Positions 39,456-50,710 of a stretch of DNA of 64,000 nucleotides are shown piece after piece. Numbering within the stretch: position 1 is the first letter of the stretch; the number at the start of each line of letters is the position of its first letter. A model generated the notes under the pieces. It saw only the letters and a list, made by a program, of their open reading frames with translations, ran no database searches and was not told the origin of the DNA. The stretch covers positions 1-64,000 of the forward strand of contig JAPEUD010000086.1 of NCBI GenBank assembly GCA_026026165.1. The letters are read 5' to 3'. The translations under genes were made by a program, and so were the position numbers. The DNA comes from Sarea resinae (lineage: Eukaryota).

Positions 39456-42400
39456 TTATGCCTCTCTTTCCGCGGGACTTTGCCCTGCATTAGACACCTC
39501 GCCTGAAACCCACGGCGTCGTCGTCGTCAACGATGAAGAAGACGCGGTTTCCTCCATATTCATATTACCACTCTCATCTTTCTCCTTTCCCTTCTCCTGC
39601 GTTCTCTTCTCCCGCTCCTTCTCCTCTCTCTTCTCCCTCTCTTCTACCATCCTCGATGCCGCCGCCTCTGAAAAAACCATCCACCACCACTCCGCAACCA
39701 CGTATCCGCCCTTCGGATCCCCCCCCCCATCACCATGACTAAAGACACCGACTCGCCTCGCCAACCCAGCACCAACAGCCCACTCCATGACCTCGCCGAC
39801 CTCCCAGACCTCAAGGCTGGGTTTCAACCCCATCGTCACCGACTCGGCCGTCGAGCCCGGTCGCAGAGCCAAGCGAGTCAGGACGGCCACGAGCACGAGA
39901 TGCCAGAGCTGCGGGATGAAGCGAGAGTGGATGTCGTAGTAGACGGGAATCTTCCGGTTCTTGCCCACTTCCGTAGAGGGTGGCGGCGGCGGCGGCAACG
40001 AAAAGACCGGCTTGCCAAACTCATACGTGGTCGAGGGGAAGATGTCGACGTGGAAGCGAAACTTCGATTTATCCATGAGGCGCGTCCGGTAGTCACCAGT
40101 ATCCGTGAGACCCGTTTTCTTCCGCGGCGGGTCGCGAGGACGGAGCTGGATGCGTTGGTTTGCCAGCAGGTTGATCGTGGCTAACGCTCCGCCGTCTTCG
40201 GCGTCATAGTCATATTCGATCGATCCCGGTCCGTCGTCGCCAAAGACTCTGTCGAGCTTGAACTTGAACGCTGCGGCCTGGTTGAAGTGCCCTTCGTCCA
40301 GCGAAGTCTTGAGAGCCTTGAGGAACTGATCTGAAACATCGTAGTTGCGGCCTGGGACCAGCCGGCCCTTGTTCTCTTCGACGAGGATCTTGTCCCGCAA
40401 GAGCGATTCGAGAGCGTCGTTGATGGCCGATTCGCCAAGAGTGAGGAGTTTGTCGCGCGCCTTGACTGGATCATAGACGGCTTGATCGGTTATGACATTT
40501 GCTCGAACCCAAGATTTGGCTAAAGCCATTGTCTCTTCACGCTCATTTCCTCCAGCAGGCTCGCTGGTCAACGGAGCAACATATGGCAGGCTTGTAATCG
40601 TTCTCACGCGCTTCGCAGTCGTTACCGTCGGGCTAAAGAATTCTTCCCTCCAATTGTTGATGGCCAACTCTTCCTTACGCAGATCAAAAAGACTGTCAAG
40701 TTGTTGGCGGTCCGCAGGAAGATTTGGGACACTACGAGCGCTGTAGAAAAGTAAGCATACATCCCATCAAAGGTGACCAATTCGACAAACCTCGGCACGT
40801 CCAAGTTACTCTGGGCCCAATCGACCAACCAGGCCCAGTCATACGACTCAAGGTTGTCATAGTCAAGTGGTGGTACAAGTCCATCTTCGTACGCTTGCGC
40901 AAAAACCTCCTGGAAATCAACCTGCATCTTCTCAATGTGAAGTCGGTGTTTCTGCATGATCCTCGGCCAACGCCTCTGGATGATTCTCTCGTCATATTCT
41001 GGCTCAAAAAGTCTACCAACAAGAACCCAATCGATGTTTCGCTCCAATCCTCCAGTGACGGTTCGAATGACAGTCACTGCTACCATGAATCGCTGTAGGG
41101 TCGCAAATGGTATGGTATTTTCCAGTCCTGGTCTGCGGTTGCGTCTGTATTTGGGCATCTCTTCGCGCGAAGTCAGTGACACATTCTAACAATGAGGGTG
41201 GAAAGCATACGAGGTAAGGGTTGAAGAGGCCCAGAAGTTGCCTTATCCAGCATTGCTGTCAGCCTCCGAACTTTGAATTGAGGCTGCGGCGTCGGCCGAG
41301 TCGAAGTCTCGGGCTTGTGTGCTCGAGGTTTTGGCGTTTTCGGCTTCGGTTGTGGCGCTCGAGGACCCGGTGGTCTCCCGGACGGTTTCTCTAGAGCTCT
41401 CCTTATCCCTGGCGGCCGGCCTGGTGGTCTACCTGTACCTGGCGGCTTCCCTCGTGGCCTTCCTGAACGTCTCCCTCTACGTGGTAGCAAGTCTTCATCC
41501 TCCGAGTCCATTGGCAGATTAGCCTGCGGCGGGTGACTGAGAGTAAACGAGTCTTCTGCGTTGAATCGTAGAGCTGGTATTGATTCAAATAGAGGAGCTT
41601 CGCCGGGAAGAGTATGATTGATAAAGCGCCAATTGGTTGATTTGCCATGGATGAGGATTGGATTTTGAATCTCCCATCGGGCAACAGATTCCACGTCTGC
41701 TCGAAATTTACTCCAGGATGGGTTATCTTGTCTTTCATGATCCCTCCTTCGTCCCTTTAAACGACGATGAGTAATATCTTCCAAGGAATTGGGCAAATTC
41801 CGTTCGTGGAAATATTGCAGATCCGCTCCACTCAGATATCGGACGTCCGGCTCTATGGCAAAATCTTTTTTAGAGATCCTTGGCATTACAAGATCTGTCG
41901 AGAACGTTCCTATATTCGGATAAAATGTTTGTTGAGGAGACGTAAGTAAAGGGAGTCGACTATTGGCCGAGACTGTGCCAAAACCTTTCAAGCCTGATAC
42001 CTGGAATATATAGTCTCCATTGGGCTGGAATGTCGTTGAAGATGATCGAGGAAGTATAAACCCCTCCTGACCCTGATCCCACTCAGATGAAGTGGATATT
42101 GTGTTTTGCCAGGACTTGTAGGGATGCCAAGGTGCCCGGCGCTGATAATATTTACGAGGCGTCGTGTTCAAATGGTATCTCGCATATGAAGGCTGCATAT
42201 TGACTGAACCACCAGAAAAAGCTTGTGGTCCAGCCTGACCCGGTCTAGGGTGACCCGTATTTGGCAAAATTAGCCTACCTTGCCGACTTCCTTGAAGGCT
42301 GAAGAGACGATCCACCCTAGGATGCCAGCTTCCTTGTGCAAACATGACCGGAGGCACGGTACTCTGCGCGTCGACAACCCTAGACAAAGCTTCAAGACGC

Positions 42401-45400
42401 GTTTGATGCGGTCCTGGGAGCGGAGTGTCGTCATCGCTTTCGTCACTTTCCATTCGCCTCTTCCGTACTTGGACACGTTGTCTAATGATGGGGAGGTGCT
42501 GAACCCTGACTTGGGAGTTTTGGCCATCGATGGGAACAGAGAACCCTGGTGGTGGTAATGGGTGAGTTCGCCGATTGTCTAGTCTCGACCGGAGATCGTG
42601 TGGTACCTCTGCTTCCGGTGGCATGTATTGCAGTGGGTCTGCATCGATGATTTTCTTTTGCATCTCCCTAACTACACTGGAAGTGGGTGAGATGTCCGAT
42701 CGTGTTAGGAGAGGCTTCGTTTTCATCACCCCTCGTTTATCCTTGAAGCTGAATTTCAACTTACGAAGCTTCCCCGAATCTACAAGACCTTTGACCGCTT
42801 TCATGGGAGTCGTACGATCAGGAGTGCTGTAGTTTGACATCTCCATCCAGGCTTGAGTGAATGGATACCACATTTCATTGTCGCCCGGAAAGACGCCTCC
42901 ACATTTATCAACAACATCCAAAACTATCTTGTTCCTCTTGTATGCAATGGTGCCGCCACCTATGAGGACTTTGGGCTTCGATGGTTCTGTAGACTTCTTT
43001 CCACGGGATGATTTCTGTATTTGGACCTCGCCTTGATCTGGCATGGTTCGCTTCTTTTTGGATTTCCTTGCGGGCGATTGCTTCGGTTGTTCTTCTCGTA
43101 CTCTTTTGGGCCGAGAAGCGTGCCGTGGCATTGATTTTCCAAAAGGTCTGTTCCAGGCGCCACGTAAGGACTGAAGAACAGACGCGGATGACTCTTGCAA
43201 CTCGAAGAGCAAGTCGCGTGGCATTTCCCACATGCCCTTCGAAGTCTCTTTCTGCTGCTTTGAACTGTCCAGTCCTTCAGGGGTGGGAAAAATAGACGCC
43301 GCTGCATCGGTTTCTGCGGGTTGGGGATAAGGGAGAGACAAAAGCGAAGGGGCTTCTAATCGGGTATCCCTAGGATGTTCTACAGCTTGGGCAGGGGTGG
43401 CCAGCAGAGTAGACGTCAGCGTCATATCCGGGCCCACAGCTGATAAACTGGGCTGATCTGGTGCAGCCACAGGCGTTGAAAACCAAGAGAATTCTGTGAG
43501 ACGCGTAGATTTGAAGACGGCCATCTTGGACTTCCTTGGTCGCCCCCGTCCCTTGTGTTCGGGCTTGCTGACGCCTGGGGGATCAATATAAACGCCCGGG
43601 GTTGGAAGCAAAGCACGCTCCTGTAATTGGTTGCCAGAGACGTCTAAGGCATTGTCGTTGCTTTCAATTGGCGGATGACTCTGCTTTCTCTTTTTCTTCG
43701 GAGGACGACCTCTCGGCTTAGAGGCGGGGCCCACAACAGCAGTTGATCCTGCCGCAGCCAATTCCTCCAGCCTTAGGCAGTTCCCACCGGCTTGCGGCTG
43801 TTCAGGAGGCTTGTTTATCGCTTGAAAACCGGCGCGCTCTGAAGAATCTGGAGGCTTTTTGTGGGGCATTTCGCCATTGATGTCAGGGTCCACCGGATTT
43901 CCTTGCATGATTGGCTGCGAGAATTTAGCATTTTCTGCTTCAGGAATGAATTCGGCCTCAGCAGCAACCGCGTTGTGCTCTGTGGTCCGGGAGCCGTAGG
44001 AGGCTGTTAAGGATTGAGCAGATGTGTCACTCTTTGCGGCTCCAGCAGCTTGTTCAGCATTGTCAGTTTTTGCGAGCAAGTTTGCATTGCTGCTCTCCGT
44101 GAACGCCCGCGCCCGGGCATTTGCAGCTTCTTTCTTCTCTTCCCTGGCCTTCTTCTTATCTTCATTGGCCTGTTTCAGTGCTGCTCTGGCCTTGGCCCGT
44201 CCTTGAACTGAGTAAGGTTCTTCTCCTTTAGCGTATTTCCTTGGTCGCCCGATCGTTCGAGGTTGATTAGGATCTTTAGGGGCCCTCGGCAATCGAGGAA
44301 CTCGAGAGGCCCCCTGAGGTCCTGAACTCCGCCGCAATTTGCCCCAATCAATGTCTAATGGAGTTAGTCAGGCATTGCAGTAAAGAATCTTTGGACTTAC
44401 CTATCCTGCCATCTTCCAGTTCTACCACCATTGGGTCATGTCGCGGCATCTGGTACGTTTCTACCTTTGCAGCCGTTATGCATTCCTGTAGAGTAGCAGA
44501 ACTGTCGTTTCCGACGAACAGACTGGGCGGATAAATTGGGAACTCATACTCGTCCAACTGTGCCGCATCAGTGACAATATCGGCGCCCTTCTTTTTCGTG
44601 CTTTTTATGTCTGAAACTCCTACTGCTTCCCAAGAAGCTGCACCAGCCTCGACCAGCCGCTTGAAATTCTCGTAGGACCGGTACTTGTAATGGGTAACGG
44701 TACTTATTAAATCAGTATCTCTAACAATAGCGAGGTGGCGTAGATGTGGTGGCTGGGATTGCTGCCAGTTGTCTGTCAGGCGCATCAAGATATTTTCTAG
44801 CGGCCTTCGGAAGAAAGCTCCCATCAAATGGCTCTTCAAGGACTTCATGACTTTAGCTCATATCAGTATTAGATATTCGCAGACTTACTACAGTGCTCAT
44901 AGCTTCCGTCCCGGTGGCGTCAATGATCGAAAAGACCAGGTTGGGAAGAGGTCTATATGGCGACCATTGAGGGAGCAGTCTGCCAACTTCCTGAAGTTCA
45001 TTGCCTGAAGTTTGAGCTTCTTGGGCACTCGAATTTACCCCCTCACCCAAATCTTCATCGTCTGTCTCGCCTTCAGCATCCTCATCACCGTCAAGAGGTA
45101 GAGCTTGGGAGAAAGAACCCGAGGCTACCCACAGGGGAGCTAGCTCTTGTTCGTCGGGATAATGTACGAGTTTGATGCACTTATGGAAGTTTTTGCGGTG
45201 AGCCGAAGTAGCCCGGACCCGGCTGACAAAGCCAAGCAATTCTAGCCGTCGAACCATCTTGACGCACAGCTTAGTGTGCCATTTAGAATCATAGATGGCC
45301 TGGAAACCTCATGTAAGCCACTGCCCCCTCAAGTTGCTTGTTTGGGGACATACCAGATTTCTCCTCAGATCCGTATAAGTAATCAGGCCATCGTTGCCCC

Positions 45401-46580
45401 TCAGCTGGCCGAAGATGCCAAAAACCAAATTCTTGACATCAAGATACTCAGTTCCTCTGAGATCTCCGACAACAGCAGTGAGGTGCGAGGTTTCTTCGTC
45501 TATTGAGCTGCCCTCGAGCTTTACGTTGCTGGGTAGGGCGGACTTGTGGCTGAATTTCCTTAGCACGCACAAGCTGGTCCGCTGGGCCCGGGTAATGATA
45601 GGAGTCTTCACGATGTAGCCTTTCCGTGCCAAAGCATCTGTCCTCTTTGGTATTGATCTCTTGTCCTGTCCTGTCAGAGCAATGAGGTCTGTATGCACGA
45701 CACCCTGCTCGCGATGGGCAGCTATGACTGAAAGTACCAGGAATTCCATGCGAGGTATCTTGTTCCAATCAATATTGTGGCCGGTAATAGCATACCACAT
45801 TCGCTCCTGGCCGACGTAGACTCTGGGTTCAAAGCGTGCAAGCTCCGGACTTAGTCCCTCAATGGGTGTCGAAGTTTTCTGAGCAAGCTCAGGGTCGACA
45901 TCTGTGGCCGAGATGGTCAAATCTACAGTCTTATGCTGCTCTTCCAAGGCCTCCGCTTGGCTGAGAGTGAGCTTCTTGCCCTCATTTTGCTTCCCAATGC
46001 GTACGTCAGGATGAGCAGTAAGCCACGCCCAGACGCGAACCTGAAACGAATGGTCGATCGTTGGCTTGTCAGTAGACTCCGCGGGATGGAGGGCCGCAAA
46101 CTTTTGACGCAAAGAGCGATTCAAGCCAGGAATCAAGTCCGGTGGGTTGCCAGCAAGCCCGGACGGGGAGTTCGAATCTGGATCTGCCAACGTCTCCGAA
46201 AATGGATCCTCGAGGTAGAAATCTTTGATGAATTTAAGCACATCGGCCACGCTTGCTCCTGTCGTGGACCAATATTAGTACAGATGATCAAAATCATCAT
46301 AAGCATCGCAGACGAGATTCGAACGTGAGAGCTGGAATAAACAACATTTGAGCACCCCTGCATATACCTTGCATATGCAATCTGACACCGAGAAGTAGAT
46401 TTGTAGTCATCAATCTGCCACTCGCGATGTGACGCAAGTAAACACGACGCCAAATGCAAAAAATCGCCATCCCGCACACTATGCACCATGACAGATCTGA
46501 CAGAGCCACCTACCTTGCTCACCACACAGCGCGATCTCTCCCAGCAGAAAGCTCATCAACTCGTTCAAGCTTCTCGCCAT
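39456..46580 (-). CDS. TFC3: TFIIIC B-block-binding subunit (Tfc3/Sfc3, tau138), multi-exon
   Basis: Exon 1 MARSLNELMSFLLGEIALCGEQG (ATG 46580), intron 46513-46259. VWAWL..HPDV, RMWYAITGH, B-block domain LTGQDKRSIPKRTDALARKGYIVK, GGVFPG, C-terminal YVVAEWWW. Several AT-hook-like GRP motifs. Confidence 0.93.
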
Positions 46581-46659
46581 TTTCGCCCCCTTCTCCTCCT
46601 GCTGAGATCCAGAAAACCGAAATTAGCTCATCGATGGTGACTGCGGGATTCGAACGTGA
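46313..46659 (-). promoter_or_regulatory. Two B-box (TFIIIC-site) motifs at the TFC3 locus: intron 1 (46313-46328) and upstream of the ATG (46644-46659)
   Basis: Both read TCACGTTCGAATC(C/T)CG on the minus strand and contain the B-box core GTTCGAATC. Neither has a tRNA T-stem. Confidence 0.7.
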
Positions 46660-47235
46660 AGCAGTTCGTGATAGCGACGGGAGGAGTGGCGATCTTTGGC
46701 GACTTATTGTGGAGAGGTACGAAGTACTGCGCAAGAGGGTGGAGGTACGAGGTGGAGGTACAAGATACGAGGTACAGAGATACTTTCATCCGTCATTCCC
46801 AAATGGGTCAAGTTTGACCCCTCTAGGGCGCCAAATGAATACGGAGTACGTACTCTCCTTAAGGTAAGGTACCTACTAGGTAAGGTAGGTAGGTAGGTAT
46901 TGATAGAGTACTGAAGTATTCGTAAGTGGGATATGGTACATCTCTATCTCTTGCATCCAAAAGCTCCATACGTTTTCATTCCTTGAGATTGAGGTCGTGT
47001 TCGAGAACATAGTCTCAAGAAGAACGCCGGATAAACAATCACAGAGGCCGCCTGCCGGCAATCACTTGATTTCAGACGCCATCCAGATGGATGAATCTGT
47101 ACATGAGTATGTAGATCATGGGAAAACTCCGTCGCCATGCCAAGAACAGGAAAGAAGACCCTCATAATAGTTCCCAAATCAAATCGAAACTTGTAACCCA
47201 AAACCTATACACTCCCGTATACCTCACTGAAATGA

Positions 47236-48907
47236 CTAGAATAGAGCTTGTAGGTCGATGGGCTTGGGAGACATAAGAAGATCCCTTTTACTGGAGGTAT
47301 TCGTAAAGTGTAAGTTCCCAAGGTCACACCAATTTTTGATAGGCTGCCAAATCAGTCAGCATCTGAATTCGGATCAAGGAGGTGAGGAAGCAATACCAAA
47401 CAGCTGAGATATTTGCACCAGGAGCAGGTTTCTCTCCATTTATAGAAGTTTTTCAAGAGCACGATGAACGCGACGAGGACTCCCACTAGAGCCGCAGCTC
47501 TGATCAACCACCACGCCCACCATAATGGCTTCCTGCCTTTGAAGAAAGAAAGTGGGCTACTGATGAATCCTTTGACCGCCTTGATAGAGTCTCGGCCGTG
47601 CGTGACAGGGACATAGGGCCCATATGGAATTACTTCTCCCACGCGTCGACGCAGAGACTCTGGTGAGTGGAGGATACAGACACCTAGGACGAGTCCCATG
47701 AGAAGTCCGCCTATGTGAGAGAAATTATCCAGCCCCGGAAGAAGTCCTAGGACTAGTGAAATGACAATATCAATGCCAATGAACATAAGGTCCTTCAAAG
47801 GTGACACGCGCGACTGCCAGCTGTATAACAGATCCAGCAGAGTAAGGGCGACAATACCAAAGAGACATCCGGAACAGCCCCTGGAGATTAGTCAGCTAAA
47901 GTCTCTGAATCTTGCTGAATTTTCAGGAACTCACGTTGATGCAATGCCAGTCGCTGCATAATTTCCCCCCAGAACAAAGCCGAAGATGCCACTGCTAAAG
48001 TAGACCAGAGCAAATCTGATAGAACCGATCGTCCTTTCCATATCTCTTCCAATCGTCAGTTGCAAGACCATATTGAATCCTATGTGTATAATTCCGGCGT
48101 GTAAAAACATTGGGATGATAAATCGATACCACTGATCTGGTTCTGGCTCCATCGATCCCTTTGAGAAACCGCAAAGTTCAGCAAGGGAACAGTGATTCGA
48201 TGCGTCGTCCGAATTAGAGCTAGTTGTGTTGGGGCACGCCCATGTGATGGAAGAATCGGTAATGCCAGCCATTTTGTGCATGCAGGGAACAAAACGGGCC
48301 CCCATATTTATCATGACATATGATGAAGGCCCGATCATTGGATTGAACTGAGGATGTATCTCGATTGGTGATTTCGTCAGAACAGCTATTTGACGTTAGA
48401 TGCATCGATGAAGAAGTCAGAGCGCACTCTTCCCTTACCATTTTTGACAATCTCCCCAATGAATACGGCAATCTGAACAACTGTAAGTACATAGCACACC
48501 CAGGTTATCTTTCCACTGAAGAATCCGCCGCGTCGGTTCCTCCCTCTGCTAGTCTTGGGCCCATCAGGATCAATAGGTAAGGGAGGTAGACGGGTGTCTG
48601 GGCTTTGTGTTTGACGAAGTGGGATATTATCCGCATACGGATCAGGATCTTGTAGATGGGCTGGTCCGGTCTTGCTGTATGATGTATCCGTATCCAGACT
48701 TTGCTGGCTTTGAAATGGCTGCGAGTATTTGGAGTAGGATTGGCTCTCGTATGCCGTTGGCTGATGGTTGACTTCCAGGCCCGACGGTGAAGGATCATAT
48801 GGCCGCTGTGGTAATGGTCGCGAAAAGTCCGATGACGGAGTCAGGTCGTAGTCATGTTGGCCGTAGTGCCTTGGAGGGGAAGGATTGTAATACTCGTTCG
48901 CGGCCAT
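47236..48907 (-). CDS. Rhomboid intramembrane serine protease; 4 exons
   Basis: FNPMIGPS, QWYRFIIPMFLHAGIIHIGFNM, catalytic G-C-S-G across an intron, DNFSHIGG, C-terminal CSWCKYLSCLP..WC. Confidence 0.93.
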
Positions 48908-50710
48908 CTCATTCGACAGCCTTCGGACAAGGAGATGCGTTTGAGAGAAAATGCTCTCGATCGAGCGGCCCAAGAGGGCTACGAAACAAAATCAGGTCGG
49001 CGAACACCAGTTATTGACTCTTGGTGAGACCTATCGAAGAGGCTCCAAGCGCTCTAAGGATTGCGATTGCCGAGAAACGGGACCAACTTCAAAAAGAGTA
49101 TCAACGAATGTTCCAAGGCAACTCGCGATGGAGGGCGACACGGCTGTATGTAGATATCGTAAAAGGGAGATGAAATGTGCTGTGAGCTGTGACCTGAGAG
49201 TTCTTTCGTTTTGAGCACAACAACGTGTACGGCTGGCGGCCTTGGGATCCAGGATCCTTAGTAGTTACGTACCTGACTAGTAAGCCGAGGGCATAGAGTA
49301 CAAGTTCCCCTTGTTCCTCCCCAGACTGCCTAAGACAAACCGTACTGCGTATGCCGTCGTGGGAAAGCCAGAGGTACGCTCGCTCACTAGAAGCATCAAA
49401 TGCAACCGAGGACAACAATGAAGCCAGAGGACCTTGCTTTTGGTCTCGGACGCTGTGTCTCCTGAGATACGGCCAGTTTTGGAGGATGCCCGGTAGCATT
49501 ACTTGTAGGAAAGGAGTCCGCAATCCGAAAATAGATACTTACGTACCTTGGGCTGTGCAACACGCGTTCCTGAGTCTACGGTAACCTTAGGTAAGTCGGT
49601 ACGAATTACGTCGTACCTCCAGGCTTGACGACGGGAACCTGGGGAAGAGGGCCGAGGGGGCCTACGACCGCTTTTGGCCGATGAATATGAACAATCTGTT
49701 CTGGAACCTGTGTTGTACCACTGTGCACACATCCATCGTCTCAATTGGCATCTTCTCAGCTGGAGATCGGTTCTTCATCGGTGCTTTATCACCATGGAGC
49801 GACTTCAATTCTCAAAATATACCTACTGGAATAGCCTTTTTGGGATTCCTGGAGCGAAAGCGGTAGAATTGTTAACCTCGAATGGACTTCGGCATTTCAT
49901 TGGAGCACTGTGGAAGGTTTGGTTGAACTCATCAACTGCTCTGGATCACTATTCGGTCAAGCCTGAGACAGCTCTGAGACAGTTCGTATGACGCCTTGTC
50001 AGAATGGATCCATCCAGGTTCAAACATTCACACGCCTGCAGCTTTGCCTTTAGAGAGCAAGTTCAAAGAAGACAACAAGGTGACGTGCTCAATCTGTGCA
50101 ATCTACCATAGAAAATTCTAGCTGTCAGAAAGTACTGTATTTCATTACGTTCATTGCCCAGAATACCATCTTATCACTCATCATAATAGTCATTCTCACA
50201 CCATCTTAACGATTCCACCATCCGCCGTGCTCTGCAGCGGCTAGAATAAGCAAACGGAAGTTCAATGTATCCAACGCTAGAGAGAAGCGAAACTCCGTTG
50301 CTCAATAATGCAGATGCTCAAGTGTGCGACGTATGGAATCAACGATGCTCCAGCCAGGTCCAAATAAAGGCCCGAACGTAGTCGCAACAAATATCGTGGT
50401 GCTGGCTTGAAGCGAAGACTCGAGCTGTGGCTGAGAGAGGACTGCCCTGGAGATCGTGGGGAAGATCTTCGCTAGACGACCATTCATACACCACACCGCG
50501 CATGGTTCCGTCGTCTTTAAACCACGCGACGAAAATCTGCAAGTTCCAACGCGTTTGACGTCCAGCGCCCTTTGGGGCAAGGGCAACCCTTCAGATTCTC
50601 CAGAACGATCATATTGTTACCAGCAGCCGTCTTGACTTTTCCAATAGAGTTTCGGATAACATTTTTCGACGCAAGTCAGACCAAAGGTCATGGTCCTTCT
50701 GACTGACCAT

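Follow-up and report, generated by a model that had tools for sequence, protein, structure and literature searches.

Genes and B-box motifs at the 5′ end of TFC3

In the fungus Sarea resinae, the gene for the B-block-binding subunit of TFIIIC, TFC3 (or Sfc3), carries two nearly identical B-box motifs at its 5′ end, one upstream of the start codon and one within the first intron. The gene lies in a stretch of 64,000 nucleotides (nt) of contig JAPEUD010000086.1 (assembly GCA_026026165.1, positions 1 to 64,000, forward strand), called the window below; coordinates are positions in it. TFIIIC sets the output of tRNA and 5S RNA and organises chromatin. Little is known about control of its level, and the sole worked case is TFC6 in budding yeast. 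The features on which the argument turns are as follows:

39459..46580, minus strand: TFC3/Sfc3 gene (TFIIIC B-block-binding subunit), about 2207 amino acids (aa) in seven exon blocks, from Pfam and tblastn of protein P0112
46514..46580, minus strand: exon 1, 67 nt, 22 codons plus one base
46259..46513, minus strand: intron 1, 255 nt, phase 1, GTAGGT...TACTAAT (branch site)...CAG, conserved in position and unusually long
46644..46659, minus strand (sense): upstream B-box, core GTTCGAATC at 46655-46647, first base 75 nt 5′ of the ATG, a conserved element
46313..46328, minus strand (sense): intronic B-box, core at 46324-46316, 190 nt into the 255-nt intron 1
46170..46178, plus strand (antisense to TFC3): third GTTCGAATC, in exon 2 within codons for ..DPDSNSP.., not conserved
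46635..46636, minus strand: C and A 3′ of the upstream box, 19 and 20 nt after the first B-box base

An earlier sequence-only reading of this DNA had assigned the gene to the TFIIIC B-block subunit, and Pfam agrees: PF04182 (B-block_TFIIIC) matches the open reading frame (ORF) piece at 45312-46274 with an E value of 1e-22, and PF20222 matches a C-terminal piece of the gene. The start codon is the ATG at 46580-46578 on the minus strand, and the encoded protein is about 40% identical to its closest named relatives. A database protein of 2207 aa, 99-100% identical and with the source label Sarea resinae MAG protein, returned the same exon blocks in tblastn. The junction between exons 1 and 2 is supported both by these blocks and by a gap-free alignment to the N-termini of many fungal homologues. 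Since the remaining five TFC3 introns measure about 43-54 nt (estimated from tblastn block ends) and the intron of the neighbouring rhomboid-family gene measures 53 nt, intron 1 is about five times longer than the others, in line with its having been singled out earlier as unusually long.

The 13-mer TCACGTTCGAATC occurs twice, at 46316-46328 and 46647-46659, both on the minus strand and thus on the sense strand of TFC3. There is no further match in the 64 kb even with one mismatch; 0.14 copies are expected, and none of 100 shuffles reached two. Extended to 16 nt, the two copies are identical at 15 of 16 positions (94%), and the sequences that flank them are unrelated to each other. The core GTTCGAATC is found three times in the window, at 46170-46178 (plus strand), 46316-46324 (minus) and 46647-46655 (minus), against 0.92 expected, and the window holds no other match to GTTCGAANC. 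The sequence-only reading had described the same pair (one copy upstream, one in intron 1) and the antisense core in exon 2, and its coordinates and counts all hold.

One explanation would be that a short motif has clustered by chance, and 6 of 100 shuffles did reach the three copies of GTTCGAATC seen in the 64 kb. Against this, all three copies lie within at most 490 nt, the pair of 13-mers never appeared in shuffled sequence, and the upstream box recurs in orthologous loci far beyond expectation, as described next. With these results the probability left to chance as an account of the whole arrangement is vanishingly small, and for the upstream box chance is excluded. The exon-2 copy may be due to it.

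Conservation and identity of the upstream box

Orthologous loci were collected with an N-terminal alignment, which was built with 49 short homologues and then used to scan metagenome contigs. The scan gave 181 candidate stretches, 137 of which encode relatives, and the best 80 of the 137 were analysed with their flanks. A hidden Markov model (HMM) of the first 37 residues found exon 1 for 72 of these loci; the remaining eight lacked upstream sequence or gave no HMM match of at least 10 bits. Together with the window these loci make 73 sequences, which fall into 49 clusters at 90% nucleotide identity and 40 clusters at 80%. By best protein match the sample includes Penicillium- and Aspergillus-like loci (72-96% identical to named proteins), a Parastagonospora-like lineage (86%) and many lineages that could not be placed. 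The gene structure is stable across it: exon 1 is 67 nt long in almost every modelled locus, and a phase-1 intron of 82-283 nt (median 206) sits at the same codon in the 34 representative loci in which exon 2 was placed.

The sequence-only reading had proposed looking for the boxes in orthologous promoters and first introns, and for the upstream box the answer is strongly positive. A sense GTTCGANNC lies between -140 and -55 from the ATG in 36 of the 47 non-redundant clusters whose upstream sequence extends to 140 nt or more. Only 0.38 would be expected from the background rate (49 motif matches in 258,122 nt, both strands, more than 1 kb from the ATG in the same loci), giving a binomial P of about 1e-65; like the other binomial values here, it takes clusters as independent and overstates that independence, as the loci are phylogenetically related. 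Clustering at 80% leaves the result in place (31 of 39), and 23 sense matches fall within -100 to -81. When all 180 distinct orderings of GTTCGA were run as a control, each with NNC appended, the B-box order itself was found in 36 loci and no other in more than two. The same signal appears when no motif is given beforehand: no other 7-mer is shared by as many leaders as GTTCGAA, which occurs in 25 of 47, where shuffled leaders reach at most 6. The box is also present in loci whose proteins are 92-96% identical to those of Penicillium canescens and Aspergillus calidoustus.

Loci without the canonical sense box are often not without a related one. Most of the 11 such loci, taken together with L010, whose short upstream sequence stops at the contig end inside the motif and kept it out of the count, show a variant: three carry an antisense box, three GTTCGAACA and one ATTCGAACC. 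In several of the loci without a canonical upstream box, a box is found in the intron only. In L030, L041 and L050, which belong to one clade, the extended motif keeps its place and is turned round; this suits a DNA site that a protein binds, and does not suit an RNA element. When these three are set beside L028, L037 and L048 of that clade, a GTTCGACTCCTGG-like motif stands at equal distance from the ATG and is flipped, as if a short segment had been inverted.

The pattern of conserved positions identifies the element. In 39 sites seeded on GTTCGA only, the position that corresponds to C61 is C in 35, and positions 59 and 60 vary; the flanks of these sites are almost information-free, and the bases upstream are weakly constrained. 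By this pattern the upstream element is a B-box, and the boxes in the window match the consensus GTTCRANNC at its invariant positions. The nearly uninformative flanks point to saturation around the motif, so shared ancestry alone is insufficient to account for its retention. The upstream element is fixed in position and under selection across many diverged lineages.

Beyond the core, one further position is constrained. Counted from the first box base, position +19 is C in 31 of 40 sites, against a background of 0.31 (P 2e-9), and CA occupies +19/+20 in 23 of 40; the upstream box of the window has the +19 C. In a hand alignment this base coincides with the last conserved base of the 23-bp sequences of yeast extra-TFIIIC (ETC) sites on the B-box strand (PMC3395662). 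It is the sole position of the 3′ extension in common with yeast, and the other extension positions are not conserved. A yeast cryo-electron microscopy study describes base-specific contacts of tau91 3′ of the B-box, at bases conserved among ETC loci. The conserved CA at 46635..46636 is a candidate tau91 contact or, alternatively, a candidate initiator.

Could the site belong to a different sequence-specific factor of RNA polymerase II (Pol II), with the likeness to a B-box being coincidental? Ordinary factor sites do exist in these promoters: at -400 to -140 other shared 7-mers are TGCCAAG (12 of 42 loci), CCCCACC (11) and TCACGTG (8), against a shuffle maximum of 7, and these are probably sites of ordinary Pol II factors. 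Against such an explanation, conservation falls precisely on the invariant bases of a B-box (C61 is fixed, 59/60 are free), the C at +19 is ETC-like, and the host gene itself encodes the B-box reader. We consider a coincidental likeness quite improbable.

A B-box could also be the relic, or a working part, of an RNA polymerase III (Pol III) unit such as a tRNA-derived gene or a short interspersed nuclear element (SINE), either making a small RNA or merely persisting. The sequence-only reading had stated that the boxes have no tRNA structure, and three kinds of search agree. ARAGORN finds no tRNA gene in the 64-kb window and none in 50 loci, Rfam gives no match at E<=10 in the window at 45900-47100, and a full T-stem is present in 0 of 37 sites, with a mean of 1.84 of 4 pairs formed against 1.61 in shuffles. 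A strict match to an A-box is found upstream of the box at only 3 of 40 sites and at none of the other 37. The upstream element is not a tRNA, and an idea that it acts as an RNA mimic of the T-arm was dropped because of the number of pairs and the lack of any full stem.

Some features nevertheless recall a Pol III unit. The C and A at +19/+20 match tRNA positions 72/73 (by our presumed numbering), T-runs follow many boxes, and in L059 and L065 the box is preceded, at a distance of 39 nt, by an A-box-like TGGTCTAGTGG. These related loci (about 4558-4606 in L059 and 4525-4573 in L065) are the only sites with a tRNA-gene-like arrangement; their B-box is degenerate (GTTCGAACA), ARAGORN detects no tRNA there, and the arrangement may either reflect how the element arose or be a Pol III unit. 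Set against these features, besides the negative searches, are flanks that are unrelated between lineages, a 13-mer with only two copies in 64 kb, and the position itself, which a neutral relic would not hold across classes. A Pol III unit is therefore very improbable, and the dispersed repeat or SINE that the sequence-only reading had named as its own alternative finds no support in the window or the loci.

Second boxes, leader and neighbouring gene

Boxes in addition to the upstream one are recurrent. A sense B-box is present in 9 of 34 first introns, which together hold 11 matches against 0.62 expected (P 8e-11), and an antisense box is present in only 1 of the 34. GTTCGAA also tops the shared 7-mers of intron 1, if marginally (8 of 34 against a shuffle maximum of 7). 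Between -300 and +330, 13 of 49 loci have at least two sense boxes. The partner stands either about 160-175 nt 5′ of the main box or within the intron, and 8 of 14 paired-box spacings lie at 139-199 nt; the pair in the window is spaced at 331 nt and one other at 321 nt. The intronic box of the window is positioned later in intron 1 than most orthologous ones.

We take the intron of yeast TFC3 to be at the same position as intron 1. Saccharomyces cerevisiae TFC3 retains its intron, 27% of the spliced products are non-productive, and an AAG acceptor with a competing CAG downstream has been reported (PMC3983031). An AAG acceptor, in place of CAG or TAG, is also seen at intron 1 of L001-L006, L016, L017, L063, L069 and L075.

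The leader between box and start codon and the gene upstream add two features:

46623..46631, minus strand: two-codon upstream ORF (uORF) ATG AGC TAA, starting 24 nt after the first B-box base
47352..48991, minus strand (same strand as TFC3): rhomboid-family gene (Pfam PF01694), upstream neighbour

Each of the 40 leaders contains one or more ATGs 3′ of the box and 5′ of the main ATG. A uORF no longer than two codons is present in 18 of the 40, where shuffles predict 3.0, and in 13 of these 18, the window included, it starts 23-30 nt after the first box base. The middle codon and the stop of the uORF vary, which points to selection on translation. Besides the window, uORFs of the form ATG-NNN-stop occur in L007, L016, L031, L033, L035, L044, L047, L051, L058, L060, L069 and L075; another group of loci has an out-of-frame ATG about 10-19 nt 5′ of the main ATG.

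Some of the contigs are apparently derived from RNA. Set against L051, L053 is missing precisely intron 1 (175 nt) and one more short segment, and it forms a single open frame of 5,857 nt; L026 is open over 5,944 nt; and in L054, which comes from the project that also supplied L053, the second intron is removed and intron 1 is still present, apparently an intron-1-retaining isoform. The box lies within the leaders of the spliced, apparently RNA-derived contigs L026 and L053, which are unstranded and show only that some RNA covers the box.

For the window itself, a wood-decay metatranscriptome run holds 5% of the sampled words, and its single contig covers only 47055-47479. This contig, from a relative, is 95-99% alike, carries nothing of TFC3 and represents the 3′ end of the rhomboid gene with the 53-nt intron at 47344-47396 spliced out; it stops at 47055 beside adapter sequence. 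The intergenic stretch 5′ of the box contains short tandem direct repeats at 46714-46763 and 46870-46905 (GGTGGAGGTACGA twice and a TACC-rich run).

These observations bear on the main rival to a feedback role, in which TFIIIC does bind and acts positively or architecturally, by keeping a nucleosome-free region, by setting the Pol II start site (for example at the CA) or by insulating TFC3 from its neighbour. Several findings are consistent with it. The distance between box and ATG is tight, with the 23 sense matches at -100 to -81, and the CA is conserved at +19/+20. In the window the rhomboid gene is in tandem, with RNA that reaches at least to 47055. In yeast, TFC6 without TFIIIC binding or with a promoter mutation produces 5′-extended transcripts with upstream AUGs and 17-fold less protein (PMC4228148).

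Other evidence speaks against this rival. Mutation of the ETC6 B-box raises TFC6 mRNA, according to a commentary (PMC3334521). The orientation of the neighbour is not conserved: in L051 the longest upstream ORF is on the opposite strand, which suggests a divergent neighbour. A generic insulator, moreover, would have no need to be placed at the gene for the B-box reader specifically. On this evidence a positive start-site or insulator role is unlikely; it is still the main rival, next to which another Pol II factor and a Pol III unit are minor ones.

Possible control of TFC3 by TFIIIC and comparison with known systems

The upstream box, and probably the intronic one too, may be ETC-type sites through which TFIIIC controls the gene for its own B-box-binding subunit, most likely by negative feedback. 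From the conservation of the box and the identity of the gene, we judge this on the whole probable. Within it we infer TFIIIC binding and the sign of regulation, together with whatever the small uORF, the additional box and the length of intron 1 contribute. The boxes would be bound by the tauB module of TFIIIC and no tRNA would be made; because the gene whose 5′ end they occupy encodes the B-box reader, they would couple TFC3 output to free TFIIIC. Abundant TFIIIC would occupy the A-box-less site about 75-100 nt 5′ of the ATG and, where a second site exists (100-330 nt away), that site too. An occupied site would hinder productive Pol II transcription, through occlusion of the core promoter or as a roadblock to polymerases from upstream; whether initiation or elongation is blocked would depend on where the start site is located. 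When TFIIIC is scarce, the sites would be empty and TFC3 expression would go up. A B-box alone gives TFIIIC nanomolar affinity, to which an A-box contributes little. Because the boxes here are A-box-less, they may fill only with TFIIIC in excess.

A more elaborate version would join the B-box, the CA 19-20 nt downstream, the two-codon uORF and the long intron 1 into one composite module. In such a module, TFIIIC would serve its own gene as a core-promoter factor of Pol II, or as one that sets the start site, and its occupancy would decide where transcription starts and hence determine if the uORF is read. Where boxes are paired at 150-330 nt, tauB dimers would bridge them in a concentration-dependent way, which would make the pair a cooperative sensor of free TFIIIC. 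The module would have been kept throughout Pezizomycotina, and the loop would have moved to TFC6 in budding yeast. TFIIIC dimerisation in vitro is concentration-dependent in the yeast cryo-electron microscopy study. As a whole, this extended version is doubtful.

Several points weigh against negative feedback through paired sites. The canonical sense box is absent from -140 to -55 in 11 of 47 loci, and the relatedness of the loci tempers the P-values given above. The intronic box is recurrent, not universal: it is found in about a quarter of lineages and at variable positions, and in the window it is without the +19 C. The antisense copy in exon 2 has no matching peak among the orthologues, as only two antisense matches fall at +360 to +420 in 49 loci, the window's own included. 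Of the multi-site arrangement proposed by the sequence-only reading, then, the intronic box stands as a partner in part of the lineages; the exon-2 copy does not stand; it may be due to chance or be a lineage-specific addition, and it is not claimed here as part of the system. The location of the box inside the leaders of L026 and L053 favours a roadblock over promoter occlusion, and these assemblies are unstranded. Lastly, the sign of the regulation is taken from yeast TFC6, and the opposite sign could apply.

If feedback of this kind does operate, self-sensing through an ETC site would be an old and general design, and different lineages would have attached an ETC loop to different tauB subunits. 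ETC sites, whose role was called unclear in a 2025 review, would gain a concrete, testable function, and Aspergillus and Neurospora are organisms with good genetics for such tests. The proposal would also help to explain why TFC3 has kept a long 5′ intron, and the loci provide a natural set of candidate TFIIIC sites without an A-box for binding and structural work.

The mechanism has parts that are known from elsewhere. Pol II can be halted by TFIIIC acting as a roadblock (Roy et al., 2016, PMC5052057), and this offers a way in which TFIIIC bound in a leader or an intron could stop Pol II. In that article, however, TFIIIB is the main roadblock and TFIIIC has a role after TFIIIB depletion; the effect is not known to extend to ETC sites inside a gene. 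The type 2 tRNA promoter, which consists of an A-box and a B-box, shares its B-box consensus with the sites at TFC3, down to which positions are invariant. It differs in that most of the loci here have no A-box, and there is no cloverleaf and no T-stem.

The COC sites of Schizosaccharomyces pombe (Noma et al., 2006, via PMC3395662) are TFIIIC-only sites that likewise have a B-box. They were defined by tethering to the nuclear periphery, while the element here is known from sequence alone. The sequence-only reading had mentioned a reported TFIIIC site near S. pombe sfc3, which a literature search did not find. Nor did literature searches, with most subscription papers outside their reach, turn up any account of a B-box at TFC3 or sfc3, in keeping with that reading's remark that it knew of no such arrangement described in filamentous ascomycetes.

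Yeast ETC sites come closer. They have an extended B-box with a 3′ extension of about 10 bases (Moqtaderi and Struhl, 2004, via Hiraga, 2012, PMC3395662). The sites at TFC3 share with them the B-box core, the lack of a tRNA, evolutionary conservation and a conserved base at +19. No other base of the 10-base extension is conserved at TFC3; the +18 G of yeast, for one, is absent. Yeast ETC sites also lie mostly between divergent genes, whereas the position here is fixed to one gene (PMC3395662).

The closest parallel is ETC6 at TFC6 in S. cerevisiae, where ETC6-bound TFIIIC represses the gene (Kleinschmidt, LeBlanc and Donze, 2011, via PMC3334521; Korde, 2014, PMC4228148). These two sources confirm the autoregulation of TFC6 through an extra-TFIIIC site to which the sequence-only reading had appealed. 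As at TFC6, a B-box without a tRNA stands about 100 nt 5′ of the gene for a tauB subunit, and the logic of a general Pol III factor at its own Pol II promoter would be shared, with binding presumed here. The gene, however, is TFC3, which encodes tau138, the B-box reader, and not TFC6, which encodes tau91, and the clade is Pezizomycotina. Unlike TFC6, TFC3 often has a second box, sometimes in a conserved long intron 1, and a conserved small uORF 3′ of the box. The element at TFC3 is well supported as a conserved element, with a logic like that of ETC6 and TFC6 set on a different subunit gene and in a different clade.

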